NCBI GenBank assembly: GCA_947626595.1
Contig: CANQST010000003.1
Span: 8,396 to 72,395, forward strand
Source: an uncultured Bacilli bacterium
Lineage (GTDB): Bacteria; Bacillota_I; Bacilli_A; RF39; UBA660
Direction: 5' to 3'
DNA length: 64,000 nucleotides
Shown: positions 1-17,500 of the stretch, piece by piece
Position numbering within the stretch: the first letter of the stretch is position 1
Layout: each line of letters opens with the position of its first letter
The notes under the pieces: model-generated
What the model saw: the letters and a program-made list of their open reading frames with translations, nothing else
Databases searched by the model: none
What the model was told of the DNA's origin: nothing
Made by a program: the position numbers and the translations under genes

Positions 1-36
1 TTAGCTTTTTTATCTTTATTTATTAGTATCTCAATT

Positions 37-504
37 GTGGACATATTTAATTCTGCTCTGCCTGTTTTTATTGGTGTATTTTTAGATTTTATATTTATTA
101 TTATAGCTATTCATTATCTTAAAAAATCAAATAATTTAAGTGATATTGTTAATAAGGTACTTGATGAGCTAACTAAAGAATTTAATAATGAAGTAAAAAA
201 TATAAGAAAAGAACTTTTAGAAACAAAAGAAGATAATGAGAAAAGTGTAAAACATTATAAAGATGAAGTAAAAAGATTAAGCGATAATACAAAAGTATCT
301 AATAGATGGGAAGATTTTGTGAATTTTAGAAAAAAACATTATAATCAAAAAATCGAGAATTTATTGTTAGAAGTTGGTTTAAAAGAAAAAATTGAAGAAC
401 TAGGAATAAAATATATTAGAATTAATAATAACAATAAAATTAATGATGGAAGTATAGAGGACTATATAATTTATTTCGATAAAATTTTAGAAGAAAGTAC
501 CTAA
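37..504 (+). CDS. hypothetical membrane-anchored coiled-coil protein; reading frame is open back to base 1, so the N-terminus may lie upstream of the window
   Basis: ORF with a hydrophobic N-terminus and a K/E-rich coiled-coil-like middle. No stop codon in frame between bases 1 and 37. Confidence 0.45.
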   Translation: MDIFNSALPVFIGVFLDFIFIIIAIHYLKKSNNLSDIVNKVLDELTKEFNNEVKNIRKELLETKEDNEKSVKHYKDEVKRLSDNTKVSNRWEDFVNFRKKHYNQKIENLLLEVGLKEKIEELGIKYIRINNNNKINDGSIEDYIIYFDKILEEST

Positions 505-518
505 TGAGGTGAAATGAA

Positions 519-1169
519 TTGAATAAGAAAAAATTAAAAGGAGAACGTAAATGGACCTACTATACTAAAAAAATATTAGAAGATATGATAAATACTGATA
601 AAGAATTAAATAAACATAAATATAAAATATATTGTGATACTGATGAAGCAAAAAAAACTTTAAGTGCTGTTGTTTCTTTAAATAAGTATATTAAATGTTC
701 TAATAATGAGATCCATGATATAGATAAATCAATTAACGATTTTACAAATAATAAATTTCATCCAGATATTTTAATTACAGAAGATGTTATTAATGAAGGC
801 ATATCATACTCTATACCTAGATTAGTAATTGAAAATAAATATAATGGTACAAGTTTTACACCTCATGAAATTTTAGCCTATAACTATAAAGCAGATTTAC
901 ATAAAAAATTATATCCAGGTCTTAGATATGGTCTTATTATAGGAAATAGTAGTTATATTAATAATACTACTATAAGATTTGGTAATAACTTTGATTTTAT
1001 TTTATCTTTAAGTGATGAAGTATCTGATAAAGAAAAAGAAAAGTTAATGGATATTGTCAAAAAAAACCTTGATTATGCAACTAAATTGGAAAGTATAATA
1101 GATGATAAGAATAAATCAATATCATGTGTATGCATAGAAAATAATATCGAGTTTGAAGATATAAAATAA
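519..1169 (+). CDS. hypothetical protein with a PD-x(n)-ExK nuclease-like motif (HPDILI...LVIENK); copy 1 of the duplicated cassette gene
   Basis: TTG start preceded by a GAGGTGA SD. Near-identical paralog at 7795-8433. The motif is read directly from the translation. Confidence 0.6.
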   Translation: MNKKKLKGERKWTYYTKKILEDMINTDKELNKHKYKIYCDTDEAKKTLSAVVSLNKYIKCSNNEIHDIDKSINDFTNNKFHPDILITEDVINEGISYSIPRLVIENKYNGTSFTPHEILAYNYKADLHKKLYPGLRYGLIIGNSSYINNTTIRFGNNFDFILSLSDEVSDKEKEKLMDIVKKNLDYATKLESIIDDKNKSISCVCIENNIEFEDIK

Positions 1170-1235
1170 TTTATAGGCATCTATCAAGTGCCTATTTTTT
1201 GTACTTAAGCTATAATAGTTATAGGAAGTGATATT

Positions 1236-1673
1236 ATGCCTGTAATTAAAAAAAATGTAAAAGCAAAAAGTAAAATAGAAATTGATGATAACGAAATTAA
1301 CGTTTATAACCATGAAACAATTAAAAATATTATTAGATATTTAAATGCTTATATGGAGGAAATTAATTTAGATAAAAAAATTTTATATTTTAGTTTTTAT
1401 AATTCAAAAAAATATTTAGTAGAAAATTATAGTTGCTTAAATAAAAAAAATATTGTAATAGTTGATAAGGATTACTTAAATGCTGACGATATAAAACGTT
1501 ATATTATCGAACAAAAACCAAGATATATATTTATTAATTATTATAAATTAACTTCAAATAGAGAAAATTTATTATTAATGAAAGAAAAATTAGGGCATGT
1601 ATTAAATAAGATAGAAGAATATAGTAAAAAATATAATGTAAAATTTATAGTAGCAATAAATAAAGAAGATTAA
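1236..1673 (+). CDS. hypothetical protein, present only in cassette copy 1
   Basis: 145-aa ORF flanked on both sides by the repeated RBS string ggaagtgat. No recognisable motif. Confidence 0.45.
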   Translation: MPVIKKNVKAKSKIEIDDNEINVYNHETIKNIIRYLNAYMEEINLDKKILYFSFYNSKKYLVENYSCLNKKNIVIVDKDYLNADDIKRYIIEQKPRYIFINYYKLTSNRENLLLMKEKLGHVLNKIEEYSKKYNVKFIVAINKED

Positions 1674-1677
1674 GGAA

Positions 1678-2721
1678 GTGATTGGATTGTATGAATATTT
1701 AAATAGTATAGCAAAAGAATACCTTACTAAGGAATTGAGAAGAAATTTTTTTAAGAAATTTGATTCCAAAGATCTATTTAGAAGATGTGAAAAAGAAATG
1801 GATATTCTTTATGATAGAGATTTACTTTTTATTGTTGAACACCTATATAAATTTAAAAAAGAAAATAAAAATGTTAGGTATCATTTTAGAGGTACTATAA
1901 ATAATCTACTACTCTTATATGTATTAGATATAAGTTATGTTAATCCTTTAGAATATAACTTACCTTATGAGTTGTTTAATGATAAAACTATTAATGTTGA
2001 TATAATTAATGAACCTAGTATCCTTTTTATCAATTACTTAAATAAACAAGCAGACAATTTTAAAATAGTTCATGGTAATTTTATAAAAGAAGATATAAGA
2101 GAAGTAAATAAATTCTTAGAAAATCATTATTTATTGTTACCTTGTGGTTATTTAGATAATAGTATGTTTTTAAAGTTTAATGATTTAGATACATTAGAAA
2201 CTATCGATGATTATAGAAACTATAAAGATAAATATATGACAATAAGAATAGATGAAAAAGATATAATAAGATGTGATAATGTATGTCTTGATAATGTATT
2301 TACTAATGATTTTGAAAGAGAAATGTCTAAAATTTTAAAACCTAAAACCATAAATGATTATATAAAAATAAAAAGTATGGCTCATGGTACTGATGTATGG
2401 AAGAATAACCAAGATAAGTTGTTTAAAGAAAAAAAGATAAATTTAGATAATCTAATTACAACACGTGAAGATATATTAGAATACCTATTAAATCACAAAA
2501 TAGATAAAGATGTTGCTTTAGATATTACTATGTTTATTAGTCTAGGGCAAGCACAAAAAGAGCCTATTAAATGGGAACAATACATTAAAATAATGAAAGA
2601 TAACAAGTGTGAAGAAATGTTTATTGATGTTTTCTCTAAAATATTATTTATCTTTGGTAGAGGTCAAGCAGTAAGTGAGTGTTTATATGCTTTAGATAAA
2701 AATAATTATATTGGAGAGTAA
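1678..2721 (+). CDS. miniature DnaE-like protein (homolog of the Pol III alpha palm entry region, lacks PHP and distal domains, catalytic Asp pair not conserved); copy 1
   Basis: HFRGTINNLLLLYVLDISYVNPLEYNLPYELFN aligns to the DnaE [35 protein letters not shown] block. The downstream SILFINYLNKQ...IKEDIREV resembles the RDEVIxYV...AIRDV block of DnaE. The PDxDxDF catalytic position reads VDIINEP. Confidence 0.55.
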   Translation: MIGLYEYLNSIAKEYLTKELRRNFFKKFDSKDLFRRCEKEMDILYDRDLLFIVEHLYKFKKENKNVRYHFRGTINNLLLLYVLDISYVNPLEYNLPYELFNDKTINVDIINEPSILFINYLNKQADNFKIVHGNFIKEDIREVNKFLENHYLLLPCGYLDNSMFLKFNDLDTLETIDDYRNYKDKYMTIRIDEKDIIRCDNVCLDNVFTNDFEREMSKILKPKTINDYIKIKSMAHGTDVWKNNQDKLFKEKKINLDNLITTREDILEYLLNHKIDKDVALDITMFISLGQAQKEPIKWEQYIKIMKDNKCEEMFIDVFSKILFIFGRGQAVSECLYALDKNNYIGE

Positions 2722-2724
2722 AAA

Positions 2725-3393
2725 ATGAATTCAGATACTAACAAACTATTTAAAGCAACTATAACATTTGAAAATGATAATTATATGACTATAGTTTTAT
2801 ATTTAATTTATAATGGTAAAGAAAAATTAAAAAATGTAGTTCCTCAAATAAAGTTTACAACTTGGGGTAATAAATATCTCTTAACTGTTGATATAAAAAA
2901 AATTAAAATTTTAGAAAAATTAAAAAAATTAGATAGCTATGATAAATTATATATAAATGATGTTTTAGAATATGTAAAAACACATCAACAACTATTATTA
3001 GAGTATTGGAACGCTGATATACCAGAGTTTGAAGCAAAACAAATATTTTTTGATGAAACTAATGATCATTTTGGTTGTACTAATTTAAGTAAAAAAAAGT
3101 CGGGTTTACCTATGAATTTAGTTTTATATTGTTCATATCTACTTGATAGAGATAATATATTATTTTTTCAAAATGATTATGGAAAACTTAATTATAATAA
3201 TATGATTATGATGAGTGTTGATAAAGAAAATCCACAAGTATTAGTAGATAGGAAAATAAATATAAAAGAAGAAGATATGATATTTTTAAAAAATTTTATT
3301 AAAAAACATTATAAAACAATAACAGACTATAACAACGATGAACTATATGACGCTGAAATATTTGATTTAATTGATGAAAGTTTAAATAATTAA
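2725..3393 (+). CDS. hypothetical protein
   Basis: 222-aa ORF immediately after the DnaE-like gene. No recognisable motif. Confidence 0.45.
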   Translation: MNSDTNKLFKATITFENDNYMTIVLYLIYNGKEKLKNVVPQIKFTTWGNKYLLTVDIKKIKILEKLKKLDSYDKLYINDVLEYVKTHQQLLLEYWNADIPEFEAKQIFFDETNDHFGCTNLSKKKSGLPMNLVLYCSYLLDRDNILFFQNDYGKLNYNNMIMMSVDKENPQVLVDRKINIKEEDMIFLKNFIKKHYKTITDYNNDELYDAEIFDLIDESLNN

Positions 3394-3416
3394 AAATATT
3401 AGTGGAGATGATGTAA

Positions 3417-3908
3417 ATGTTTTTAAAAAAAATACAACAAAAAAGATATAATAAAATTTTATTAAATGAATTAGAAAAAAAGATAGATATTACTACAGAT
3501 AATCTTATTGAACATCTATTAATGTGTTTATTACTTAAAGATTCAACTAATAATTTAAATCACTATAAAGATGAAGTATATTCAAGTTTTAATAAGACAT
3601 GTCTACTTATTGGTAATAATAAATTTCCTACTAAAAAAATTTTATATAATATTACATTAGATCAATTTAGTGATGTTTTACCTGCTTGGATAAATGGTTA
3701 TATAGAGAATATAAATTATAAAGAAAATGTTAATATAAATAATTATGATAGTTCTTTATTAACTAATTATATAATTGAATACTATAAATGGTTAATTTCT
3801 ATTTTAGCCAAAAGATATTTTGTTAAGCATGAAGAAGTAAATGATAAAATTAATATATTAATTAATAATTATGATAAAGAAACAACTATGAAAAATAATT
3901 ATGTATAA
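3417..3908 (+). CDS. hypothetical protein
   Basis: 163-aa ORF preceded by a GGAGATGA SD. Confidence 0.4.
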   Translation: MFLKKIQQKRYNKILLNELEKKIDITTDNLIEHLLMCLLLKDSTNNLNHYKDEVYSSFNKTCLLIGNNKFPTKKILYNITLDQFSDVLPAWINGYIENINYKENVNINNYDSSLLTNYIIEYYKWLISILAKRYFVKHEEVNDKINILINNYDKETTMKNNYV

Positions 3909-4377
3909 AGTAGGTGATATAAAATTGAAAATATATTCTGTTTTAGGACACTCAAAAGAATCAACTAATTTTAATTATGATTTAGTGTTAAATGAATTGA
4001 ATAAAGATTATAATATAAATGGGATAACTAGAATTGGTTTTACTGATAATGGTTATGAAGTTTTTATAATAACTGATGATGATTTATTAAGTGATGTACC
4101 ACACTTTCATTATCGTAAAAAACAGAAAAGTAAACCTAATGAATTTCATACTTGTATAAAAATAACTGATGTAGGATATTACCATCATATAGGTAATGAA
4201 GATAAATTAAATAAAAAACAAATAGATGATTTAATAAAATTTTTAAATTCTAAACCATTAAATACTAAACATTTTAAAAGTAATTGGGAGTTATTATTAT
4301 TTAGTTGGAATAGTCAAAATAACAATATAATAGTAAATCATAATTTAGAGATACCTAATTATAATAAATTAAAATAA
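3901..4377 (+). CDS. hypothetical protein
   Basis: 158-aa ORF overlapping the previous stop codon. Confidence 0.4.
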   Translation: MYKVGDIKLKIYSVLGHSKESTNFNYDLVLNELNKDYNINGITRIGFTDNGYEVFIITDDDLLSDVPHFHYRKKQKSKPNEFHTCIKITDVGYYHHIGNEDKLNKKQIDDLIKFLNSKPLNTKHFKSNWELLLFSWNSQNNNIIVNHNLEIPNYNKLK

Positions 4378-4639
4378 ATATTAAAAAGGATACAGGGAGA
4401 AAAGACAGTGATAGGGATTTTTTTAATGAAACTTCAGTAATTTTTCCCTGTGCTTTTTTTGTTGTTTTTAAACATTTTAATAGCTTTTTAGGGAAAAATG
4501 GAAGAATTTTTGTTTCTTAAGAATTTAAAAAACACAAAATAAAATATATTTATATATAAAATATTATATAAAAAGATATAAAAAAAAATTTAATAACTTT
4601 TTCCACTTATCCCTAAATACTATATAATCATTGAAAAAC

Positions 4640-4712
4640 AACGAAAAATAGTGGGGAAAAAATTAAAAAAATCTTCTCTAAAAGATCCCTTATTTAGAAG
4701 CTTCCCCACTCA
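4640..4712 (-). terminator. putative intrinsic terminator downstream of the recombinase gene
   Basis: Inverted repeat agtgggga/tccccact. On the minus strand the downstream arm is followed by a T-rich tract. Confidence 0.35.
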
Positions 4713-4723
4713 TATACTTATAT

Positions 4724-5332
4724 TTAACTATTTTTAACTAAATTATAAAAAGTATTAGGTTTTAAATTTAGTAGTTTCATAGCTTCACGAGCCGTGATTT
4801 TCTTATTCTTCCATTTATCGACTACTTCATCAAAATTATCAGGTTTATTTATTTTAGGTCTTCCAAAAGGTCTACCTGTTTTAGTTTTGCCTGTTTTTAA
4901 AGCTAAATCGATACCCTCACGCTGACGTGTTTTAATATAAGTCCTTTCTTGTTCAGCAACATAACTTAATATCTGTAATATTAAATCATTAATAAATGTT
5001 CCTAATAAATCTTTCTTTTGTCTAGTATCAAGTAGAGGCATATCTATTACTACAATATCAGCTTTTATATTTTTAGTGATATCTTTCCACTCATTAACTA
5101 TCATTTCATAATTTCTACCTAAACGATCAATACTTTTAATAAATAGAGTATCATTTTCTCTAAGTATATTTTTTAATAATTTATATTGTTCTCTATCGAA
5201 ATCTTTACCGCTTTTCTTATCGATATAAATATCTCTTTCTAATATACCAATATTTTTAAATGCTTCTATTTGTCGTGCTTCATTTTGTGATGTAGAAGAA
5301 ACACGACCATAACCATATTCTCTTTTTTCCAT
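4724..5332 (-). CDS. small serine recombinase (resolvase/invertase family) with a C-terminal HTH
   Basis: N-terminal YGYGRVSSTSQ catalytic-serine motif. Length 202 aa, typical of the Tn3 resolvase/Hin family. C-terminal HTH-like segment. Confidence 0.85.
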   Translation of the reverse strand: MEKREYGYGRVSSTSQNEARQIEAFKNIGILERDIYIDKKSGKDFDREQYKLLKNILRENDTLFIKSIDRLGRNYEMIVNEWKDITKNIKADIVVIDMPLLDTRQKKDLLGTFINDLILQILSYVAEQERTYIKTRQREGIDLALKTGKTKTGRPFGRPKINKPDNFDEVVDKWKNKKITAREAMKLLNLKPNTFYNLVKNS

Positions 5333-5384
5333 AGTTATATTCTCCTTTCACGTTGATTATATAATTGATTATGAAAGTCATCAC

Positions 5385-5520
5385 TATTATATTTGAAAAA
5401 GTATAAAAGGTTTTCAAATATTTAAAAATTAATAACTTGACTTTTCCAAACACAAAAAACACCTAGATTATCCATAAATCTAAGTGTTTGAAAATGTGTA
5501 CTTTTTCAAATACACATTTT
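5385..5520. promoter_or_regulatory. inverted-repeat cluster upstream of the recombinase gene; candidate res/crossover site or operator
   Basis: atttgaaaa-N11-ttttcaaat, aaaatgtgta-N10-tacacatttt and ttttccaaacac...gtgtttgaaaa, all within 140 bp directly 5' of the recombinase start. Confidence 0.3.
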
Positions 5521-5525
5521 TGTTA

Positions 5526-6464
5526 TTATGCCTTACATGGTCCCCATGATGTATTAGTTTCAGTATCAATACACTTAATATCGTTACTACCACATAAAAC
5601 ACATTTAAATTGGCCACTTTTTATTTCTTTAATATTTTCTTTACTTAATGTTTTTACTCCAATATAACCATGGCAATTATTACAACAAATTTTATATTTA
5701 AAACCCTCTTCAATTGCGTCTGGATCCGAACATGTTGTAACTCTATATATTGTATTATCATTAATTAGTTTTGCATACCTTTTCCATACTTTATCATGTC
5801 CTTTAGTATTAGTAAAAGCATGTAAAATTTCATGTATAAATATACTTATAAGGACCTTTTCTGAATATTTTAATATAAGATTACTTAATTCTATAATAGC
5901 ACTATTGTTGTTATATCTTATACATTGTCCTGCAGCATATGTTAGGTTTTCATTTAATCTGTACTGAATATCTTTAGTTAAGTATTTTTTTATTTCGTCT
6001 TCTCCAATAACCTCTTTTATTACATTAAGGGCTTCGAAATACCCTAATTTTATTTTCATGCTTTGACCTTTTGTTTTTTGTACTCTTTTATTAATAATAA
6101 GAGTAGGATTTTTCTTTCTAAGTAATATTACTTGACAAGGTGCAATTCCTCTTTCTATAATTTCTAGACCAGTTTTTTTATCCACCCAACAATATTTTGG
6201 AGTTAAGTAGAAAAAGTCTTTTTTTCCCTCTATAGTTATTTCTATTTTTAATGGGATTTGATAGTTATACACTACCTCCATTATTTCTTCTAATGTTTGT
6301 CTACTATTAAAAACTAGTTGTATATTTTCGACTGTTTCACTATAGAATTTGATATCTATTTTTTTTAAACTTCCTGTAATGTCCTCAAATAGTTTATTAG
6401 ATTTTGTTAATAACCTTATTTGTCCTATTTTTAAATCCATATTTTTTTTCCTCCTTTCGAACAA
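5526..6464 (-). CDS. SprT-like zinc metalloprotease with a C-terminal Cys-rich zinc-ribbon
   Basis: HEILHAFTNTKGHDKVW (HExxH...GH..W) followed by CCNNCHGY...CVLCGS...C. Confidence 0.5.
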   Translation of the reverse strand: MFERRKKNMDLKIGQIRLLTKSNKLFEDITGSLKKIDIKFYSETVENIQLVFNSRQTLEEIMEVVYNYQIPLKIEITIEGKKDFFYLTPKYCWVDKKTGLEIIERGIAPCQVILLRKKNPTLIINKRVQKTKGQSMKIKLGYFEALNVIKEVIGEDEIKKYLTKDIQYRLNENLTYAAGQCIRYNNNSAIIELSNLILKYSEKVLISIFIHEILHAFTNTKGHDKVWKRYAKLINDNTIYRVTTCSDPDAIEEGFKYKICCNNCHGYIGVKTLSKENIKEIKSGQFKCVLCGSNDIKCIDTETNTSWGPCKA

Positions 6465-6650
6465 ATAGTTATTGTTTTTACCTCATTTCTACAACAATTT
6501 TTTTCTGTTGTAATATTTAGTTACGAAAAAAAACTAAAAAAAAATAAAAAATTTAAAATTTTTTAATAAAAATTGATAAAAAATATATATTCTAACATGA
6601 AAAAAGCTGATAAAAATATTATCAGCTAGAGACTTTCAATAATTTTTTAA

Positions 6651-7034
6651 TTATAAAAAGTCATATTTATTTCTTTCATTTATACTAATTATTATAAATT
6701 TATTGGTCTTAGTTATTTTCATTAAAGAATTAAAACCATCATCAAAAGATGTAGCATAAAAGCTTTCTTTTGGAGAATTTTCATAGATTAATTCTATGTT
6801 GTAAATGCCATAAAAATCTTTCATATCATTTACTAGATCCTCATAAATTTCTGACCTATTTAAAACTAAAGTAAAATCTTTAAATGTAGAGTAGCTAGTA
6901 CAGATGTTATTTTCAATAATATAGTCTTTACTAACTCCACTTATAGTAATTTTATGAATTTCTTTTCCTTGATACTCATCTATTGGTATTAAAAATTCAT
7001 CGTTAAATCTTATTTCTCTTAATTTTTTATTCAT
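6651..7034 (-). CDS. hypothetical protein
   Basis: 127-aa ORF. No recognisable motif. Confidence 0.45.
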   Translation of the reverse strand: MNKKLREIRFNDEFLIPIDEYQGKEIHKITISGVSKDYIIENNICTSYSTFKDFTLVLNRSEIYEDLVNDMKDFYGIYNIELIYENSPKESFYATSFDDGFNSLMKITKTNKFIIISINERNKYDFL

Positions 7035-7368
7035 TAATTAACTCCTTTGTTTTCTGTAAAATTAATGTTATAAAATTATTTGCTTTTTAGATTAGTTAAT
7101 TTTTAATGTTCACATAATATCCTCCGTTTTGTCCTAGTACTTTAATATATAAAAAAATTTAAAAAAATTTTTTAAATTATTATTTATTATTAACTTGGAG
7201 TGGTATAATGATAAAGAAACCACTATTAAAAACATAACAGTTTGTTTTTAGATTAGTCAGCTCCACCATAGTGGTTACCAAACTCGGATTTTTTAAATTA
7301 TTTAATAAGTTCGAGTTTTAATATTTAATAATATATGATAAATGTTTTTAGTAATTAAGGGGAAAAAT

Positions 7369-7768
7369 ATGAAAAAAGAGTTAATTAAAACAAAAATAAA
7401 TGTTAATAACAATAAATAGGTATTTTAAGAATTGGCGATACCGACTATATATCATTAACTGATTTAGCAAAATATTCTAATCCTGAAAATGTGATAATAC
7501 ATTGGATGAGTAATAAAGGAACATTTGATTATATAGGATTATGGGAGAAATTAAAAATAACGAAGTTGGATATTCGTCATTTAATTTAAGTCCTAAAAGA
7601 TGGATTGATAGGACAAATGCCATAGGAATATATTCTAAAGGCGGAAAATATAGCACAGGGACATTTGCTCATCCTGATATAGCATTTGAATTTGCAAGTT
7701 GGTTAAGTCCTACTTTTAAATTATATTTGATTAAAGAATTTGAAAGATTAAAAAGAAATGAAATTTAA
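7369..7768 (+). pseudogene. KilA-N domain protein gene disrupted by two frameshifts in A-runs
   Basis: Three consecutive frames read MKKELIKTKINVNNNK / IGILRIGDTDYISLTDLAKYSNPENVIIHWMSNKGTFDYIGLWEKLK / NNEVGYSSFNLSPKRWIDRTNAIGIYSKGGKYSTGTFAHPDIAFEFASWLSPTFKLYLIKEFERLK. Joined, they reconstitute a canonical KilA-N domain. The shifts sit at aataaatagg (7411-7420) and ttaaaaataac (about 7550). Confidence 0.6.
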
Positions 7769-7782
7769 AAGACAAAAAATGA

Positions 7783-8433
7783 ATGGAGGTTAAAGTGAAT
7801 AAAAAAGAATTAAATGGAGAACGTAAATGGACACAGTATATTAAGAAATTATTAGAAGATATGATAAGTAATGATAAAAAATTAAATAAACATAATTATA
7901 AAATATATTGTGATACTGATAAAGCAAAAAAAACTTTAAGTGCTGTTATTTCTTTAAATAAGTATATTAAATATTCTAATAATATAGATAAATCAATTAA
8001 CGATTTTACAAATAATAAATTTCACCCAGATATTTTAATCATAGAAGATGTTGTTAATGAAGGCATATCATACTCTATACCTAGACTAGTAATTGAAAGT
8101 AAATATAATGGTACAAGTTTTACACCTCATGAAATTTTAGCCTATAACTATAAAGCAGATTTGCATAAAAAATTATATCCAGGTCTTAGATATGGTCTTA
8201 TTATAGGAAATAGTAGTTATATTAATAATACTACTATAAGATTTGGTAATAACTTTGATTTTATTTTATCTCTAAGTGATGAAGTATCTGATAAAGAAAA
8301 AGAAAAGCTAATGGATATTGTCAAAAAGAACCTTGATTATGCAACCAAATTGGAAAGTATAATAGATGATAAGAATAAAAAAATATCATGTATATGTATA
8401 GAAAATAATATTATGTTCAAAGATAAGAAATAA
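7783..8433 (+). CDS. paralog (copy 2) of the 519-1169 protein; the motif here reads LVIESK (E to S). True start is probably GTG at 7795 after the GGAGGT SD
   Basis: About 93-95% nucleotide identity to copy 1. It has a 12-nt deletion (EIHD) relative to copy 1. Confidence 0.6.
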   Translation: MEVKVNKKELNGERKWTQYIKKLLEDMISNDKKLNKHNYKIYCDTDKAKKTLSAVISLNKYIKYSNNIDKSINDFTNNKFHPDILIIEDVVNEGISYSIPRLVIESKYNGTSFTPHEILAYNYKADLHKKLYPGLRYGLIIGNSSYINNTTIRFGNNFDFILSLSDEVSDKEKEKLMDIVKKNLDYATKLESIIDDKNKKISCICIENNIMFKDKK

Positions 8434-8472
8434 TTTTGGGCACCTGTGTTTTTACTATTTAAGTTATAGGAA

Positions 8473-9513
8473 GTGATTAAATTGTATGAATATTTAAATA
8501 ATGTGGCAAAAGAATACCTTACTAAAGAATTGAGAAGAAACTTTTTTAAAAAGTTCGATTTAAAGGATCTATTTAGAAGATGTGAAAAAGAAATGGATAT
8601 TCTTTATGAGAGAGATTTACTTTTTATTGTTGAACACCTATATAAATTTAAAAAAGAAAATAAAAATGTCAAGTATCATTTTAGAGGTACTATAAATAAT
8701 CTACTGCTCTTATATGTGTTAGATATAAGTTATGTTAATCCTTTAGAATATAACTTACCTTATGAGTTATTTAATGATAAAGCTATTAATGTTGATATAA
8801 TTAATGAACCTAGTATTCTTTTTATCAATTATTTAAATAAACAAGCAGACAATTTTAAAGTAGTTCATGGTAATTTTATAAAAGAAGATATAAGAGAAGT
8901 AAATAAATTTTTAGAAAACCATTATTTATTATTACCTTGTGGTTATTTAGATAATAGTATGTTATTAAAGTTTGATGATTTAGATACATTAGAAACTATT
9001 GATGATTATAGAAACTATAAAGATAAATATATGACAATAAAAATAGATGAAAAAGATATAATAAGATGTGATAATGTATGTCTTGATAATGTATTTACTA
9101 ATGATTTTGAAAGAGAAATGTCTAAAATTTTAAAACCTAAAACCATAAATGATTATATAAAAATAAAAAGTATGGCTCATGGTACTGATGTATGGAAAAA
9201 TAACCAAGATAAGTTGTTTAAAGAAAAAAAGATAAATTTAGATAATCTAATTGCAACACGTGAAGATATATTAGAATACCTATTAAATCATAAAATTGAA
9301 AAGAATATAGCATTAGAAATCACAATGTTTATTAGTTTAGGAAAAATGAAAAAAGAACCTAATAAATGGAATGAGTATGTTGAAGTGATGAAAATATATA
9401 ATTGTGAAGATTTGTTTATAGAAATATTTTCAAAAATATTATTTATTTCCAGTAAAGGTCAAGCAGTAAGTGAATGTTTATATGTTTTAGATAATGATAA
9501 TTATTATATATAA
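8473..9513 (+). CDS. miniature DnaE-like protein, copy 2
   Basis: 346 aa. About 90% identical to 1678-2721 over most of its length and divergent at the C-terminus. Same RGTINNLLLLYVLDISYVNPLEYNLPYELF block. Confidence 0.55.
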   Translation: MIKLYEYLNNVAKEYLTKELRRNFFKKFDLKDLFRRCEKEMDILYERDLLFIVEHLYKFKKENKNVKYHFRGTINNLLLLYVLDISYVNPLEYNLPYELFNDKAINVDIINEPSILFINYLNKQADNFKVVHGNFIKEDIREVNKFLENHYLLLPCGYLDNSMLLKFDDLDTLETIDDYRNYKDKYMTIKIDEKDIIRCDNVCLDNVFTNDFEREMSKILKPKTINDYIKIKSMAHGTDVWKNNQDKLFKEKKINLDNLIATREDILEYLLNHKIEKNIALEITMFISLGKMKKEPNKWNEYVEVMKIYNCEDLFIEIFSKILFISSKGQAVSECLYVLDNDNYYI

Positions 9514-9723
9514 ATATTAGAAAGGCTAAGAATAAAGTTTAAAAAATGAAAAAGATGGTTTTTAAAATACGTTAAAATAGAGCGTACTGATATGAAATTC
9601 GGAAAACGTACTTGATAAAAATGCATTTTTATGTTACTATGAATTTGTCAAGGAAACTTGCATAAAATAAAAAAGGGAAATACTTAACTTTTGCACGCTG
9701 AGTACTTACCCCTATATAGGTTT

Positions 9724-9759
9724 GTACTTAATCTATTGTAGATTAAGTACTATTTTTTA
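9724..9759 (+). terminator. rho-independent terminator
   Basis: Perfect 10-bp stem gtacttaatc/gattaagtac with a 7-nt loop, followed by tattttttat. Confidence 0.55.
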
Positions 9760-9783
9760 TATTAAAATTTTTCTTTAGAATTA

Positions 9784-9792
9784 TGGTATAAT
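9784..9792 (+). promoter_or_regulatory. extended -10 promoter element (TGgTATAAT) for the GNAT gene
   Basis: tggtataat lies about 25 nt upstream of the ATG at 9817. Confidence 0.4.
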
Positions 9793-9816
9793 TTCTAGTA
9801 GAAAGCAGGGGGAAAA

Positions 9817-10374
9817 ATGTTAAAACTAATTCATGCTAATGATATGAACTTTAATAGTGTAAAAAATTATTATGACAGCTTTACCGATAAATGGAAAGAT
9901 TTAAACTGTTATGCCATTTCTCATGCCCAGTATGGACCTAATGAGTATTTTGATTTCGTTAATACTTATGAAAATAATTTGTTCTATTTAGTAGACGAAG
10001 ATAAAGAAGACTATATCATTGGTTTTGGCACGATTGAAGATGCCAAAATTCTTGATTATCACAAGGACTATCTAAATGCAGGAAATATTGGCTACGGAAT
10101 AAGACCTAATGAAAGAAAAAAAGGTTATGGTACCATGCTTTTAAAACTTCTTTTATTAGAATGTGAAAAAATGGGTATGTATGAAGTATGCATATCTTGC
10201 TTAGAAGAAAATATTGGTTCTAAAAAAATAATTATCAATAATAATGGCCTTTTAGAAAAAGAATTCTTTGACGACGACAGTGGCCAATATGCCCTTAAGT
10301 TTTGGATAAAGCTCCATCCTAAAATCATAAATAGAACCAAAAGATTAGTGAAAAGACTTAGAGAAGATTATTAA
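9817..10374 (+). CDS. GNAT family N-acetyltransferase
   Basis: GYGIRPNERKKGYGTMLL acetyl-CoA binding motif (Q/RxxGxG/A-like). Confidence 0.8.
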   Translation: MLKLIHANDMNFNSVKNYYDSFTDKWKDLNCYAISHAQYGPNEYFDFVNTYENNLFYLVDEDKEDYIIGFGTIEDAKILDYHKDYLNAGNIGYGIRPNERKKGYGTMLLKLLLLECEKMGMYEVCISCLEENIGSKKIIINNNGLLEKEFFDDDSGQYALKFWIKLHPKIINRTKRLVKRLREDY

Positions 10375-10391
10375 TATGGGGGGGATATAAA

Positions 10392-10955
10392 ATGAATATA
10401 ACTAAAACTAAAAATGAGTATGATACTTTTAATATAAAGTTAGAAGACGAAAACAAAGTTCTATCAATAAATCAAGTCGGACAAGACTTAAATATTGCCT
10501 GCAAATACAATGATTACCGTAAATTATCAGACATTTCATTTTCTATTTCCATAGAAAATGAAGAGTTATACTTCCCATTTAATAAACTTTATAGTAATAT
10601 AGTAGATGGTAATATTCTTGGTGAAGACATATCTTTAGATAGAGTAAAACAAACAAGTAACCTCGAAAAAAACACTAACTTATATCAAAAAATCGTCCAA
10701 AATGAAGTAATTACCATACTTTCTGATACTACTCCCATAGATTATCCTAATATTTTAAGAATTATCAAAGAGGAAGATAAAATAATTTTAAAGTTTGAAA
10801 AAGTTGAAGCTCATTTTAGAAAAATTCCTTTCTACATACCTATAGATATACGTACATCAGGCTCAAGACTTTATGACTTTTCCATTCCCTTTAAAACCCT
10901 ATTTAAAGAACTACAAAATCTTAAAGATAAAGAAAAATACTTAGTAAAGAAGTGA
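10392..10955 (+). CDS. hypothetical protein; its RBS consists of a G7 homopolymer
   Basis: 187-aa ORF. The G7 tract at 10378-10384 sits immediately upstream of the ATG. Confidence 0.5.
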   Translation: MNITKTKNEYDTFNIKLEDENKVLSINQVGQDLNIACKYNDYRKLSDISFSISIENEELYFPFNKLYSNIVDGNILGEDISLDRVKQTSNLEKNTNLYQKIVQNEVITILSDTTPIDYPNILRIIKEEDKIILKFEKVEAHFRKIPFYIPIDIRTSGSRLYDFSIPFKTLFKELQNLKDKEKYLVKK

Positions 10956-11365
10956 TATCAATGAAAAACCCTATTATAAGAATTTCCTTAATTATCCTTT
11001 GCCTTGCTCTCCTTTTAATCATATGTAACTTATCAATTAGATTTTTCAAATATATAAATATAAGAGGAACATATGAACAAATAGAAGGCAGCTTCATTGA
11101 AGAAGAATTAAAATTAAATTTCTTTAGCTGGACTATAGGCAAAAAAGAAGATTTAGAATGTGACCTATGGAACTGTACTGGCTATGAAAAAGGTAATATG
11201 TACTATATTAAAGATGGTTATTTATACCTTAGATATAATAAACATGGCGTAAGAGAAGCTGTTCAAATAAATATCAAAAAAGAAAATAAAATCACATATC
11301 TTATTATTAAAGAAAAAAATGCTGACAATAAATATACTACTAGTAAACTAAGAAAAATCGATTAA
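10952..11365 (+). CDS. hypothetical small membrane-anchored protein
   Basis: 137-aa ORF overlapping the previous stop codon. N-terminal TM helix. Confidence 0.45.
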   Translation: MISMKNPIIRISLIILCLALLLIICNLSIRFFKYINIRGTYEQIEGSFIEEELKLNFFSWTIGKKEDLECDLWNCTGYEKGNMYYIKDGYLYLRYNKHGVREAVQINIKKENKITYLIIKEKNADNKYTTSKLRKID

Positions 11366-11380
11366 TAATTAATGTAATTT

Positions 11381-11440
11381 AAACACTTTATCACAACTAT
11401 AAAAACTTGCTACAATTTTGTGAAAAAGTGTTTATTTTTA
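11381..11440 (+). terminator. long-stem terminator / palindromic operator upstream of the giant gene
   Basis: aaacactttatcacaa ... tttgtgaaaaagtgttt form 16-bp inverted arms with a 20-nt spacer, followed by a T-rich tract. An extended -10 (tggtataat) follows. Confidence 0.45.
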
Positions 11441-11512
11441 GCGACTTTTTTGGTATAATAAAGAGGCAATTTTGAAGAAGTGCTTAAATATGTTTAATAA
11501 GGGAGTTTTGTT

Positions 11513-14500
11513 ATGTTGAAATTAAGTAAAAAATATCTATTAATTCTTTTAGCTGGAGTAGTTTTCCTATTTAGTGGGAAAGTATCTGCTAAAGAAATAA
11601 TTTTACAAACCAATTCTAAAGAAGTGAACGTTGAAGATACTGTCACTTTAAATGTTTCTGTTGATAATGAAGATCAATCTTTATATGCCTTAAAAGCTAA
11701 ATTAAGTTATGATAAAGATGTTTTTGAAGTGCTAGAAGAAAAAGATTTTTCTGAAGAAATAGAAGACATTGTTTATAATGAACAAAATAATGAGTTTGTT
11801 ATTTTAAATAAAAAAGGTTCCAATGACAACTTATTTACAATTAATTTAAAAGTAAAGAAAGATGCTTTAAATGGTAAAACCACTTTAACATTAAGCAATT
11901 TAGAAGTATCAAATGGAACTGATAGCACTAAATATGATAAAAAAAGTGTTACTTTAAATGTTAAAGGTGGTAAAGATGTTACTGCTACAACTACTACCAA
12001 AAATAATAAAACTAAAAATGCTAAAAAGACTTTAAATGTTAAAAAGACACTATTAATTTCTGCTATAGCGCTCCTTATTTTAATGGCTTTAATTGCCTTT
12101 ATTAATTCTGATTACTTTGAAAAACTTAATCTAATAAAAAAAGAAAATAAAAATAAAGTATCTATTGTTATTGCGCTTATTATCATTTTAGCGGACATCA
12201 TTCTAATATCTTTATTAGGTTTTAATGCTGTTAATAAAGGTGATGTAGATAAAGATGGTAAAAAAGATTATAAAGATATACGTAAGATAAGTGAATATTT
12301 ACTTAATGTAACTAATGGTGGTAAAACATCTTCTAGTCTTAAAAATACTTTAAATTATTATAATGCTGACTACAATGGTGATGGTAAAGTTACTTTAGAC
12401 GATGTTGCCGCTCTAACTCAAGATGTAAATAATAAAACAGTTTATGAAGTAGAAGTAGCTAAAAGTTCTATAGAAAATTATTATCCTAGTAAAAACGGTA
12501 ACGTTGAAGTAAATCTATCATTTATTGTTAACCCTAGTGATAATATTTATGTTGAAAGTGTTTTTGCTAACGGCAAATACTATAAAGTAACTAAAGATAA
12601 TGATAATTATTATGCAAGTATAAAAGTTACTGATAAAGCTGGTATTAATGATATCGTTATTTCTAAAGTTAAACTAAGTAATGGTAAAGAAATAAATATT
12701 AAGCCATATACTTTAAAAGTTGATGTCTTAAAAGAAGCTCCTAGTATTAAAAACTTTGATTTTACTAATGAAGGAAAAGTATCTTTTGAACTTGTTGATA
12801 AAGATAATTCATTAGAAAAAGCTACTTTAGTAGTATTAAATAATGACGAAATAGTTACTACTAAAAAGGTAAAGAAAGATTTAAATACTTTCGAATTATC
12901 TTTAGAAAAAGGTATTAATTATACTATAAAAATACTTACTGATTATGACTTAGATAGTTCTAAAGATAATGATAAAAATGCCTTTACTGATAAATTAATT
13001 TATATGAAGCAAGTACAGCTATATGATGTTGGACTAAAACTAAATAGCGTAAGTAACAATTATCCACTTAAAGGAGAAAAAGTAACTGTTTATTTTACTG
13101 CTAGTAGTAATGTTCAAGAAGTACTTATTGATAATAAATACTATACTGTTACTAAGAATAATGATTTATATAGTTTTACTATAGATGCTCCAAATGAAGC
13201 TGGATTATCTAAATATCAAGTGACAGGTGTTATTCTAGATAGTGGTGAGTTTAGAACTAAGATGGACTTTAGTTTTGATGTCTTAAAAGATAAGCCAACT
13301 GTTAAAAATCTTATGTTTGACTACAATAGTCATACAATTACTTTCGATGTAGTTGATAAAGATAAATCTCTAAGTACTTTAAAATTACAAGTTATAAATA
13401 ATGAAACTAAAGAAGAAGCATTTACTAAAGACTTAGATACTGAAAAAAGTACTTTCTCATATAAAGCTGATTTAACTTTAGGCGCAACTTATTCCATTAA
13501 AATTACTGGAAATTATGACTTAGATAGTAAAAAAGGAAATGATAATTTCTATCAAGATTATTCTCTTTATAACCATGTTATTACTATTGATAAAGTTTCT
13601 ATTAAGAGTGTTACTGATTTAGATAATTTATTCCCTAAACAAAATGAAAATATTGAAGTAGCTCTTGATATTGATATCTATCCTACTAAAACAAAAGTTA
13701 CTAAAGTAGTTATTGATGGTAAAGAAACAGATGTTGTATATAAAGATGGTCATTATTATATAACTTTTAATGAAAAAACTTCTGGCATAAAGAAACATAC
13801 TATAAGTTCTATTATTCTTGAAAATAATACTGAAGTACCTACTAACTTTAATATTAAATTAGATGTTTTAAAGGAAAAACCAGCTGTTAAAAACTTTGCT
13901 TATTCAACTGCTAGTAAGACTATAAGTTTTACTTTAGAAGATAAAGATAAATCTATTAAGAATGCTAAGATAGTTGTTACTTCTAAAGAAAATGGTAAAA
14001 AAGTTTTAGAAGAAAAACTAGATTTAGCTAAGTCTTTATTTGAGCTTAAAATAGATTTAACTGAAAGTGCTAAATATGATGTTAATATTATAGCTAACTA
14101 TGATTTAGATAGTGATAGTACTAATAATAAAAATGAAATAGAAGAGAATTTATATACTTATCAATTAACTGTTTATGGAGTTAAATTAACTAGCGTTCAA
14201 GATACTTATTACGCTAAAAAGAATGAAGAAATAGAATTGAAGTTTAAAGCTGAAATTACTCCTGAAGATAATGGTAGTATTATAAGTGCCGTTACTATTG
14301 ATGGTAAAGTTTATGATGTAATTAGAAATATTGAAGGAACTTACAGCGTCTTTATAAAAGCAAAAGATACATCAGGAAATAAGAAATATACTATTACTAG
14401 CGCTACTGTTGGCGAAACTGAATATGCAACTAAACTAGGTTTTAATGTATATGTTTTAAAAGATAAACCTACTATAGAAGATTTATATATAGACGAAAGT

Positions 14501-17500
14501 AAAAGTGTACCAGTAATTACTTTTAACTTAAAAGATAATGACAGTGCTTTAGATAAAGGTTATGCTTATATTAAAGATGGATCAGGTAATGAAGTAGAAA
14601 AATTTACTCTTAAGAAAGGTAAGAATTCTATTGATTTAAAAGATATTGCCACTAACTTAAAAGATGGTGCGACTTACTACTTAGATGTTAAAGTTAATTA
14701 TGACTTAGACGATACTAAGAATAATAAGTATGAAACAGAAGAGTACCTTATAAATAATCATATCGTTAAAATATATAAAGTAAAATTATCTCTAGGAGAA
14801 AATAATCCTTACTACGTTAATAAAGACGAAGAAGTAAATATCAAAATAAATGCTACTGGTAAAGACTTAGATACTGTTAGAGTTAAGACATTTATTATTG
14901 ATAATAAAGAATATGAAGCTATTTATAATAATGGTAGTTACTATGTAAAAGTTAAAACTCCTACTACTTCTGGAATAAAGACATATAACATTACTAAAGT
15001 AGTTTTAACTAATGATATTGAAGTATCTTCAAGTTTAGAAATTAAACTAGATGTTCTAAAAGATACTCCTTATATAAATAAATTTAATCTTAATGAAGAA
15101 AATGGTTTAATTACCTTTGAACTTGTTGATAAAGATAAAGCTTTCCAAAATGGTGATGTATCTATTTCTAATGAAACAGGAAATTTAATTACTAAAGAAG
15201 TAAAAGAAAAGACTACAATTACCTACAAGTTCTTAGAAGATATGAATTATAATATTAAAATTACTGGTAATTATAATCTTGATAGTGATACTACTAATGA
15301 GGAAAATTTATATACTGATGTTGAAATGTTTAGTCATGACTTTCTTATTGGAGGTAATTATCAATTTACTTTAAATGATTTATCTATAACAGACTCTTTA
15401 ACTAAGAGTGAAAAACCTGTTGTATCATTCACAAGTTCTAATATGAAGAATGCTACTATTAAAGAAGTTGTTATTAATGGTAAAAAATATAATGTCTCTA
15501 AAGTAGATGGTAATTATTATGAAGTAATTCTTAATGATGCCCAAATGACATCAGGTAAACATAAAGTTGAATTAGAAAGTGTTACTCTAGATACTATGAA
15601 GACTTTTAAGAATAATTTAGACTTTTCTACTAATAGCTTAACTTATAGTGTTTTAAAAGATGCTCCAAGTATTAAGAATATTAATCTTACTAGTAATAAT
15701 ACTGATAAGACTATAACTGCTACTTTCAATCTAGAAGATAAAGATACTACTTTAACTAGATTAAAAGCCCTACTAGTTGACTCTGCTGATAAGATAATTG
15801 CTGAACAAGAATTAACTCCAGAGATGGTTTACTTATTTGATACTTCTAGTGTTACTTTATCTTACTTAGATAATGCTGATGGACATGTTGATGGTTATTA
15901 CAAAGTTAGATTTTTAGCGGACTACGATTTAGGAGAAGAAAAATATCTTTATAGTGATAAAAATGTTGGTGAAAAAGATATTTTAGTTCAAAAAGATTTA
16001 ATTTATATTAAAGATATTTATATTGCCGATAGTAGAGGTAATAAAATAGATAATTTATATCCAAGTAAAAAACAAAAGAATTATCAAGTTGTAGTAGATG
16101 TATATGTTGATAATAGTATTAATGATTATGCTAGAAGTAAATATGGTAATAGAGCTTATCAAAAAGTCTCTGTTGTAACTATTAATGGTGTTGATTATAG
16201 TGCCGATAAACTAAATGATTATAGGTCTAAAATTACTTTAGATGTCCCTGATACCTCAGGTATTCTTAACTTAACTGTTAATAGAGTTCAACTTGAATAT
16301 GCTGATTACAATGTTAGCTTTAGACAATTCTACTCTGTACCTGAAAAATCTATTAAGATAGATGTTTTAAAAGATACTCCTACTATTAAAAATTTAAGTA
16401 TTAAAGAAGACTATGCTAAAGCAAGCGCAACATTCGATTTTGATGTTGTCTTAGACGAAAAAGCTAAAGAAAAAGACGAAAGTTTCAAAAATGGTAGTAT
16501 TGCTCTAGGTGAACTTCGTCAAAATATAAATAGAGGTCATAATTCTATTACCTTTAATAATATTAAGAAAGACGAAAACTTAGATTTAGTCTTTGAAGGA
16601 AGCTATGATCTTGATACCGATACTTTAGAAACAACAGATCAAAATGAATATGAAAACAAAGAAATCTATAGAGTAAATTATGGTCTATATGATAAAGAAA
16701 CATATGAAGATATCAAAATAACAGATGGTCTATCTCTAAGTAAAAATAATAATAACTATTTTGAAAAGAATGAAGATATCAAATTAAACTTTAATGTAAC
16801 TGGCATCAAAGAAGAATTAGGCTTAGATGTTGAAAAAGTTATTATTAAAGATAAAGAATATCCTATAACTAAAAAAGATAAGTATGAAGTTACTTACGAT
16901 AGTTATAATACTTTTGGTCAAAAAGAAATTACTATTACTGGTGTTGTTCTAAGTAATGGTAAGAAAGTTGACTTAAAGAAACCTTATACTTTTAAACCAG
17001 AAATACTAAAAGATAATATCAGTTTAGATAATTATAAAGTAGAAGTTCAAAATAATAAGATTAAAATTACTTCTAACTTAAAAGATAGTGATAATTCTTT
17101 AATTAAAGCTAATATTAAAATAACTACTGAAAATGGTAAAGAACTAGTAAATAAACCATATGAAGAAGAAATTACTATTGATAAAGTTAAAGATGTTTTA
17201 AGATATTATGTTGAAGTATATGCAAGTTATGATAGAGATATTGATATTACTGAAGGAAGTTCTAACTATTATGAGACTAAATTACTAGAAGAAATAATTT
17301 CCTTTGAAGAAAATGTTATTGAACTTAAAGATATTACTGACATAAATTTATATAAAGCTGAAAAAGATAACTCTATAAATCTTTTAGATACTGTTAACGT
17401 TAATGATTTGGAGAAAAATTTAGATAACTACTTTATTGAAATTAATATGGAAAATGCTCCAAGTGTTCATGCTAATATTAAGAAAATAACTACTAAAGAT

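Follow-up and report, generated by a model that had tools for sequence, protein, structure and literature searches.

We found that the 123 bp at positions 5390 to 5512, directly upstream of a small serine recombinase gene, are quite probably the res site of that recombinase, and that site and gene together would form a Tn3-like res/resolvase module. All positions refer to the window, by which we mean the whole stretch of 64,000 nucleotides (64 kb) that was analyzed. Such a module would most likely resolve multimers or cointegrates of the element that carries it when the element is extrachromosomal and replicating. The features on which this reading is built are the following.

4724-5332, minus strand: small serine recombinase (resolvase) of 202 aa, from the open reading frame and its translation.
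5340-5349, minus strand: ribosome-binding site GAAAGGAGAA, 7 nt upstream of the ATG, read from the sequence.
5355-5400, minus strand: putative promoter of the recombinase gene with TATATAAT-type -10 boxes, which would abut or overlap site III.
5390-5420, minus strand: res site III, gene-adjacent, 12+7+12 = 31 bp, TATTTGAAAACC-TTTTATA-CTTTTTCAAATA in gene orientation.
5419-5452, minus strand: res site II, 12+10+12 = 34 bp, TGTTTGGAAAAG-TCAAGTTATT-AATTTTTAAATA in gene orientation.
5447-5489, minus strand: hairpin and U-run between sites I and II, a match of the terminator scan with 13 pairs.
5485-5512, minus strand: res site I, the presumed crossover site, 12+4+12 = 28 bp, TATTTGAAAAAG-TACA-CATTTTCAAACA in gene orientation.
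5526-6464, minus strand: SprT-like gene, co-oriented and upstream (Pfam SprT-like, 1.3e-11).

The protein translated from 4724..5332 (-) begins with MEKREYGYGRVSSTSQ and matches the Pfam Resolvase domain PF00239 over residues 6-149 (2.8e-23; 83.1 bits, with the cutoff at 23.3), which bears out its first-pass annotation as a 202-aa serine recombinase of the resolvase/invertase type. The catalytic Ser12 lies within GYGRVSS, and the motif SIDRLGRNY is present. Among proteins of solved structure, the best relative was Sin (2r0q, 1.1e-23), followed by the gamma-delta and Tn3 resolvases. When aligned with Sin, S12 of the recombinase falls on the Sin nucleophile S9 and R10 falls on R7, with SIDRLGRNY identical in both proteins, and the alignment with the Sin, gamma-delta and Tn3 enzymes showed that the D-R-x-x-R motif is also in place. 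At the C-terminus, a Pfam helix-turn-helix match (HTH_17, E 0.019) stayed below significance; the gamma-delta resolvase alignment extends to residue 201, and PF02796 was found in one relative of the recombinase, P0077. Because of the PF00239 match, the position of Ser12 on Sin Ser9 and the identical SIDRLGRNY, the recombinase looks catalytically intact.

Six 12-bp half-sites with the consensus TATTTGAAAAAG lie in 5390-5512, arranged as three inverted-repeat pairs with spacers of 4, 10 and 7 bp. Site I is distal from the recombinase gene and site III is proximal, and the whole res lies upstream of the ATG at 5332. The centre-to-centre distance is 63 bp between sites I and II, about 6 helical turns, and 30.5 bp between sites II and III. 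Site III shares 2 bp with site II and contains an exact 11-bp inverted repeat; the central dinucleotide of site I is at 5498-5499, and the gene-proximal half-site of site II is the weakest of the six. Three inverted-repeat pairs had been quoted earlier from this region, and all of them are present in the sequence:

5391-5399 and 5411-5419: pair 1, atttgaaaa/ttttcaaat.
5491-5500 and 5511-5520: pair 2, aaaatgtgta/tacacatttt.
5442-5453 and 5484-5494: pair 3, ttttccaaacac/gtgtttgaaaa.

They had been placed within 140 bp of the start, but the actual distance is 58-188 bp upstream of the ATG. Pair 2 consists of site I and a window-specific flank that is not kept in the relatives, and pair 3 combines the inner half of site I with the outer half of site II, with a separate 13-bp hairpin between them. 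Two other interpretations of these repeats were rejected: pair 2 (5491-5520) as a terminator of the SprT-like gene, as a U-run is lacking and the pair is not conserved, and a Sin-like direct-repeat site II, as the starts of the two co-oriented half-sites are 32 bp apart and both are already paired with an inverted half-site of their own.

The concentration of half-sites in this region was far above chance. The motif TRTTTGAAAA was found 9 times in the 64 kb, against 2.66 +/- 1.41 expected, and none of 100 shuffles reached 9. Four of the nine copies fall within the 123 bp of 5390-5512, a cluster for which the Poisson estimate, corrected for window positions, is about 1e-8. Allowing one mismatch added two further half-sites in the same interval, and at this tolerance no other cluster of at least three half-sites was found in the 64-kb window. 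The 8-mer TTTGAAAA was not enriched window-wide (19 copies against 15.4 expected), and therefore the signal is the local cluster and not the word. Next to these counts stand the scores from a half-site PWM that was made from relatives alone, leaving out the window and its two closest loci. The dimer scores of sites I, II and III were 28.7, 21.9 and 26.9, and the maxima of 100 window shuffles were 21.5, 20.3 and 21.7, respectively; site II, only just over its shuffle maximum, is the best site with a 10-bp spacer in the window.

The number of copies was determined by several searches. Contig L001, which is 99.88% identical to window positions 1-15332 and continues 5.3 kb past window position 1, was included. 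No second site-I-like sequence was found in the 64-kb window or in this extra 5.3 kb, and the next-best site-I-like score in the window was 12.7, which is at shuffle level. A profile built from relatives with at most 81% protein identity, again excluding the window and its two closest relatives, matched the window once, at 5384-5514 (E 1.2e-23), and the best match elsewhere had an E value of 0.16. An nhmmer profile of the 124-nt res region was then searched against 68 loci (1.0 Mb); 37 of them contained one copy each and none contained two, and every one of the 37 copies was co-oriented with the recombinase gene and upstream of it. It had been proposed that, if no second site existed and no junction reads indicated inversion or excision, the repeats would more likely be a simple operator. 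This test is unsound, as all 37 profile-positive loci have one res per element. For resolvases one res per element is the norm, the partner res being supplied by the sister copy within a dimer or cointegrate, and the absence of a second site therefore does not demote res to an operator. A metagenome scan for the site-I-like pattern returned 47 loci, most of them with neither res nor recombinase; these were rejected as isolated partner sites, tens of chance matches being estimated for this AT-rich pattern, given the size of the collection.

The recombinase is widespread. The identical protein was found on four independent metagenome contigs that are colinear with the window and 99.9-100% identical to it, with one arrangement and orientation in all four. 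Nearly 8000 relatives with E < 1e-30 came from the first protein search, and in many contigs the recombinase is 94-97% identical. A scan of one genome per species yielded 50 recombinase loci, nearly throughout from MAGs of uncultured gut Bacilli or Clostridia, with rabbit, Hadza, mouse and chicken among the sample hosts. More than 5000 plasmid records match the recombinase, the best at ~60% identity, and relatives at this level are very common on Firmicutes plasmids. IMG/VR contained only three relatives, at ~55% identity, so the family is not chiefly recorded as viral. When window positions 1-11500 were compared with phage and plasmid collections by megablast, no match was obtained.

The res architecture is conserved in the relatives. 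In an alignment of 21 sequences, the six half-sites keep their position, orientation and spacing, and their letters shift together in each locus: TTCG/TCCG (T(A/G)T(T/C)CG...) in L031, and CGTTCG in both L033 and pSA8589. Such a coordinated change of six motifs, with the geometry fixed, is as expected of binding sites for a cognate protein. The staphylococcal cfr plasmid pSA8589 (NC_021230.1) encodes a recombinase 59.5% identical to that of the window, and its res is composed of three sites:

1605-1632: site I, 28 bp.
1665-1697: site II, 33 bp.
1696-1727: site III, 32 bp, overlapping site II by 2 bp, with a spacer of 8 bp.

The plasmid res, verified by hand, is 123 bp long in all, its site centres lying 62.5 and 30.5 bp apart, so that the 123-bp three-site layout is common to window and plasmid. 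They differ in that the plasmid half-sites read CGTTCGTAAAAG and those of the window TATTTGAAAAAG; the plasmid spacer between sites I and II has phased A-tracts and no hairpin terminator, and its host is a small mobilizable plasmid, whereas that of the window is an integrated element. A rigid scan with spacers of 4, 9-10 and 7 bp, applied to distant loci (recombinase identity <=60%), missed even the pSA8589 site and is uninformative there. The pSA8589 protein is an example of the 'recombinase family protein' entries of Firmicutes plasmids. In the literature that was searched, we found no paper on this res family.

The layout was compared with characterized systems. A Tn3-like res lies upstream of the gene and is made up of three subsites, each of inverted 12-bp motifs, of which site III is the proximal one; recombination takes place within site I, and the resolvase represses promoters in or beside res (PMC12217951, PMC7157771). 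The distance between sites I and II follows a rule of 4-7 helical turns (PMC12217951), and the window, with its 63 bp, fits this definition. The earlier suggestion of a res-like layout beside a tnpR-like gene thus held up, with three 12-bp inverted subsites and a distal site I that are conserved across many relatives. Further likenesses to Tn3/gamma-delta are the position of res directly upstream of the gene, the 28-bp site I and 34-bp site II built of inverted 12-bp half-sites, the whole number of turns between sites I and II, the putative promoter at the accessory sites, and the single res per element. There are also differences. The distance between sites I and II is 63 bp here and about 53 bp in Tn3, and site III measures 31 bp here, with its 2-bp overlap, and 25 bp in Tn3. 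The total length is 123 bp in the window, compared with 114 bp in Tn3 (PMC2428073). In addition, the window has a conserved predicted intrinsic terminator in its I-II spacer, it has no DDE transposase among its scanned ORFs, and its protein is nearer to Sin than to TnpR. A comparable setting is that of SGI1, an integrative island for which a Tn3-like res system was shown experimentally to remove island multimers (PMC12217951); the host of the window module is likewise an integrative island and not a transposon.

Sin (res site resH, staphylococcal plasmids), the closest solved relative, has GYxRVSS and SIDRLGRNY in common with the recombinase, its site I is an inverted repeat, and it belongs to a Firmicutes mobile element with a presumed role in multimer resolution. 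Its res is 86 bp long; Sin binds it at two sites only, site II is built as a direct repeat, and the spacer is bound by HU or IHF (PMC2428073), unlike the three inverted-repeat subsites over 123 bp found here; the same difference applies to the beta (six) system, since in the window sites II and III are both inverted. That the protein is closer to Sin than to the Tn3 and gamma-delta resolvases, yet its res is not Sin-like, is a point against the resolvase reading. Also weighing against it are the weak gene-proximal half of site II, the C-terminal helix-turn-helix that stays below Pfam significance, the single arrangement seen in all four assemblies and the PHROGs label 'DNA invertase'.

The spacer between sites I and II contains a hairpin. 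On the minus strand, its 13-bp stem (5489-5477/5469-5457) with a loop of 7 nt is followed by a U-rich tail at 5456-5447, UUUGUGUUUG, and the RNA fold was calculated as -14.3 kcal/mol (z -4.5). Eight of the 13 stem pairs have compensatory changes among 18 relatives. In the stem, 93.2% of alignment cells are paired, against 81.1 +/- 1.6% in shuffles (0/500 reached the observed value) and 32-58% when the partners were slid. The 28 G-U cells of the stem pair on the recombinase-sense strand only; on the other strand they would be A-C mismatches, and therefore the structure is read as RNA of the recombinase-sense strand. The simplest reading is that hairpin and U-run are an intrinsic terminator reading towards the recombinase, which would end an upstream transcript past site I and shield the accessory sites, the promoter and the recombinase gene. 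Our literature search found no terminator described as a conserved component of a res spacer.

Transcription may enter res from the SprT-like gene: 13 bp separate its stop codon from site I, and a transcript of this gene would run through site I before stopping at the embedded terminator. Among 24 loci, about 18 have a co-oriented ORF whose end lies within about 60 bp before site I, often 2-15 bp before it. On the gene side of res, a promoter consensus scan gave TTCAAA-18-CATAAT at 5397..5368 (-), and just past site III there is a TAGTGA box that is kept among closer relatives, in which blocks of ATTATATAAT and TAGTG(A/C) recur. The CGTGAAAGGAGAA block of the ribosome-binding site also precedes the first gene after res in two of the related loci, L005 and L006.

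These positions bear on the possibility that the repeats are only an operator, through which the enzyme, domesticated or a relic, would repress its own promoter without recombination. Sites II and III do abut the putative promoter, the integrated element has a single copy of the site, and no recombination product is found among the assemblies, all as such an operator would have it. However, site I is about 150-180 bp from the ATG and past the terminator, which is a poor position for an operator, and it is the highest-scoring site of the three, has the 12+4+12 geometry of a crossover site and marks the edge at which homology between relatives breaks. The protein also retains its catalytic residues and is highly conserved in many contigs. 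We therefore regard an operator without recombination as improbable.

The res/resolvase module lies inside a mobile element and not at its edge. Over the first 21 kb, the GC content of the window is 0.20-0.27, and beyond it about 0.28-0.37. The L001 extension encodes an HTH_3 protein, an SSB, a D5_N/DUF5906 primase-helicase and a large serine recombinase (Pfam Resolvase + Recombinase), the last about 4.6 kb to the left of window position 1. The small recombinase had been called the only recombination enzyme in the island, which is correct for the scanned part of the window, but the island beyond position 1 has this second, large one. No tRNA gene marking an integration site was found in the window. 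Judged from these genes, the low-GC island is a modular integrative and probably replicative element, and its gene content suggests that it could replicate as an episome. Related elements share a backbone of ~7 kb that runs from res through the recombinase, a PolIII-alpha-like protein and an HTH protein to SSB, and several integrative elements whose integrases differ have it in common. Across res from this backbone, the genes vary: a tyrosine integrase, a D5 primase and DUF6076 are found in L055 and L059, and a large serine recombinase of 529 aa in L056-L058; in the window this side holds a truncated KilA-N gene and partial copies of backbone genes besides the SprT-like gene. L055 and L056, whose recombinase proteins are identical, are 94% identical over 4.7 kb that begin with the first base of site I, and upstream of this base they are unrelated. 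The homology of the window to all relatives ends at 5510-5512, or slightly further out, at 5526-5529, in two loci. The outer edge of site I is where homology breaks, which makes this site a mosaic junction between elements.

The module could also have been left behind by a Tn3-family transposon or an integrated plasmid and have no role in the island any longer. Recombinases of ~60% identity are abundant on Firmicutes plasmids, as described above, and at least one of these plasmids has the same res layout, which would agree with such an origin. Against it, the 17 scanned ORFs in the first 21 kb of the window and the L001 extension include neither a DDE transposase nor Tn3-type genes, and the module occupies a fixed place in the ~7-kb backbone from res to SSB of several integrative elements. 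This fixed place in a shared backbone indicates that the module is a maintained part of the element, and we think it hardly likely that it is a remnant.

Some distant relatives have sites of another arrangement. At ~50% identity, site-I-like 28-mers are arranged as inverted repeats: those of L074 flank a segment of ~90 bp with a TTGAAT-17-TATAAT promoter, those of L082 form a similar inverted pair about 90 bp apart, and those of L112 flank a segment of 210 bp. This suggests that the site-I-like sequence is a real type of crossover site in the clade. The hix half-sites may be similar to the TTTGAAAA-like half-site, and the enzymes of Hin/Gin and of gut invertons are likewise small serine recombinases whose crossover site is a short inverted repeat. 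Near the recombinase there is a gene for a 3178-aa surface protein, whose promoter is an example of what an invertase might flip. For the window, a DNA invertase with site I as one of two inverted crossover sites and a partner elsewhere is very unlikely: PHROGs labels the family 'DNA invertase' (phrog_125, 1.8e-42), NCBIfam gives a weak match of 36.7 bits (cutoff 272) to the Mpi master invertase and the ~50% relatives resemble gut invertons in their inverted pairs, but the window and L001 have one site I, with the next-best score at chance, and no inverted pair flanking a segment as in a Hin/Gin-type layout, the accessory sites II and III in a layout common with the plasmid homologue are a resolvase feature, each profile-positive related locus has a single profile copy, and the four assemblies show one orientation only.

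As a res/resolvase module, the region would work as follows. Each of the three subsites would be occupied by a recombinase dimer. Two directly repeated res copies on a single supercoiled molecule, whether a dimer, a multimer or a cointegrate, would synapse through the accessory sites II and III, and strand exchange at the centre of site I would then split the multimer into monomers. Binding to sites II and III, which abut the promoter, probably represses the recombinase gene, as in Tn3, and the spacer terminator would stop transcription coming in from the upstream gene. The host would be an integrated, self-replicating element with its large serine integrase, D5-type primase-helicase, SSB and HTH repressor, and when it is integrated as a single copy, its lone res would have no partner and would be silent. 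What the sequences show directly is the architecture of res, its conservation and single copy, the intact catalytic motifs, the pairing of the hairpin and the mosaic junction at site I; binding, cleavage at the centre of site I, multimer resolution, autoregulation and episomal replication are what we infer from the comparisons above.

The result gives an annotation to an abundant family otherwise named only 'recombinase family protein', namely a three-subsite res of 123 bp with a half-site consensus, fixed spacings and a terminator inside it. It leaves the understanding of serine resolvases unchanged, and its only unusual features are the embedded terminator and the role of site I as a junction. 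These two features allow a further reading, which we put forward tentatively and which may well prove wrong, that the res-resolvase unit is a portable, self-insulated junction module and that site I is the point at which modules for integration and replication are swapped while the conserved backbone is kept. If so, integrative elements of uncultured gut Bacilli and Clostridia would exchange a tyrosine integrase, a large serine integrase or SprT-like cargo at this point, and the spacer terminator would travel with the resolvase side and shield the module from whichever gene is joined to it. On this view, the partial duplicate of backbone genes that the window has beyond res (cassette B) would be what such a res x res exchange between two related elements left behind.

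The duplicated cassettes are at 517-1182/7793-8445 and 1673-2709/8468-9504, and their copies are about 92% identical. The first-pass annotation had described them as directly repeated and had expected the recombinase to delete or resolve the 7 kb between them. They are real and in direct orientation, but no cognate site was found in them, and therefore the recombinase has no substrate for deleting the intervening 7 kb. This removes the more exciting reading of the region, a programmed 7-kb deletion or inversion. The two cassette copies also differ in content, as copy A carries an additional ORF of 145 aa.

The resolvase and its res site lie in the window between the two copies of each of two directly oriented segment pairs, and a further ORF stands at the start of the second cassette (B):

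517-1182 and 7793-8445, repeat pair 1, direct orientation, about 92% identical
1673-2709 and 8468-9504, repeat pair 2, direct orientation, about 92% identical
7541-7768, 75-aa ORF matching only the C-terminal part of KilA-N (profile positions 62-106 of 107)

The duplicated segments code for two proteins, one of 216 aa and the other of 346/347 aa. Between its two segments, copy A carries 490 bp extra, corresponding to a 145-aa ORF, and copy B has 22 bp at this place. At 92% identity, a recent duplication seems less likely than an origin of the cassettes as portions of two related elements. The KilA-N ORF has the appearance of a truncated gene. The larger of the two products is kept in the backbone of related elements, and it gave weak matches to DNA_pol3_alpha:

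1678-2721 and 8473-9513, protein of about 347 aa, weak matches to two DNA_pol3_alpha domains, NTPase and finger (E about 3e-6 and about 5e-5)

It would be a stand-alone PolIII-alpha fragment within a mobile element.

The interval between res and the recombinase gene was compared among the related loci, most of which have a small ORF there, as in these two:

L055 6391-6630, 77-79-aa ORF between res and recombinase
L060 9765-9998, the same ORF in the same position

The ORF had no match in Pfam or PHROG. It is cleanly missing in the window (at 5333-5340), in four other loci (L007, L016, L017 and L026) and in plasmid pSA8589, and in the window its ribosome-binding site is joined straight to the recombinase start. 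Its position in the relatives recalls that of the TA genes located in the res-tnpR interval of Tn3-family transposons (PMC7157771).

The three-subsite layout of res was also present on pSA8589, a cfr/erm plasmid, in a region that is unannotated:

NC_021230.1 (L065) 1605-1727, 123-bp res with three subsites, upstream of a gene annotated 'recombinase family protein'

The likeness to the window lies in this 123-bp layout, whereas the half-sites of the plasmid are CGTTCG and its spacer between subsites I and II holds phased A-tracts in place of the window's hairpin.

Samples ERZ27249395 and ERZ27249684 each contained both a window-type element (L003 and L001, respectively) and a related element (L056 and L058) that has a different integrase and a recombinase 94% identical to the window-type enzyme. 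Because a central GTACAC is common to both sequences of site I, the presumed crossover site, recombination at res between the co-resident elements would be possible in principle.

In more distant relatives, with recombinases about 50% identical, a 28-mer resembling site I lies just downstream of the recombinase gene, and a second, inverted copy lies about 90 bp off in L074 and L082:

L074 1431-1568, site-I-like inverted pair, recombinase about 50% identical
L082 3017-3141, site-I-like inverted pair, recombinase about 50% identical
L112 305-565, site-I-like inverted pair, two copies around a 210-bp segment

The two copies in L074 enclose a TTGAAT-17-TATAAT promoter, and the 210-bp segment of L112 contains a GC-rich hairpin. 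These pairs are probable small invertible promoter switches with a crossover site like site I of the window.

Two further features concern the extent of the element:

L001 (99.88% identical to window 1-15332) 19975-20609, some 4.6 kb beyond the left end of the window (position 1), large serine recombinase with Resolvase and Recombinase domains
Window 11513-21049, 3178-aa ORF with internal repeats (period about 555-600 bp), GC about 0.25

The large serine recombinase, 482 aa long as encoded on the contig, adjoins a D5_N primase-helicase and probably serves as the integrase of the element; the island would therefore start outside the window. The 3178-aa ORF separates the island from the rpsL-rpsG-fusA-tuf operon (operon start 21502). 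Its matches to Dockerin_1 and GLUG were borderline, the metagenome record gives Peptidase_M26_C for it, and it is possibly cargo carried by the element.

Far from the res/resolvase module, we noticed one more gene, a possible defence-system component:

54061-56277, 738-aa protein, partial match to NF042944 (anti-phage-associated helicase HerA), 4.4e-51, below the curated cutoff
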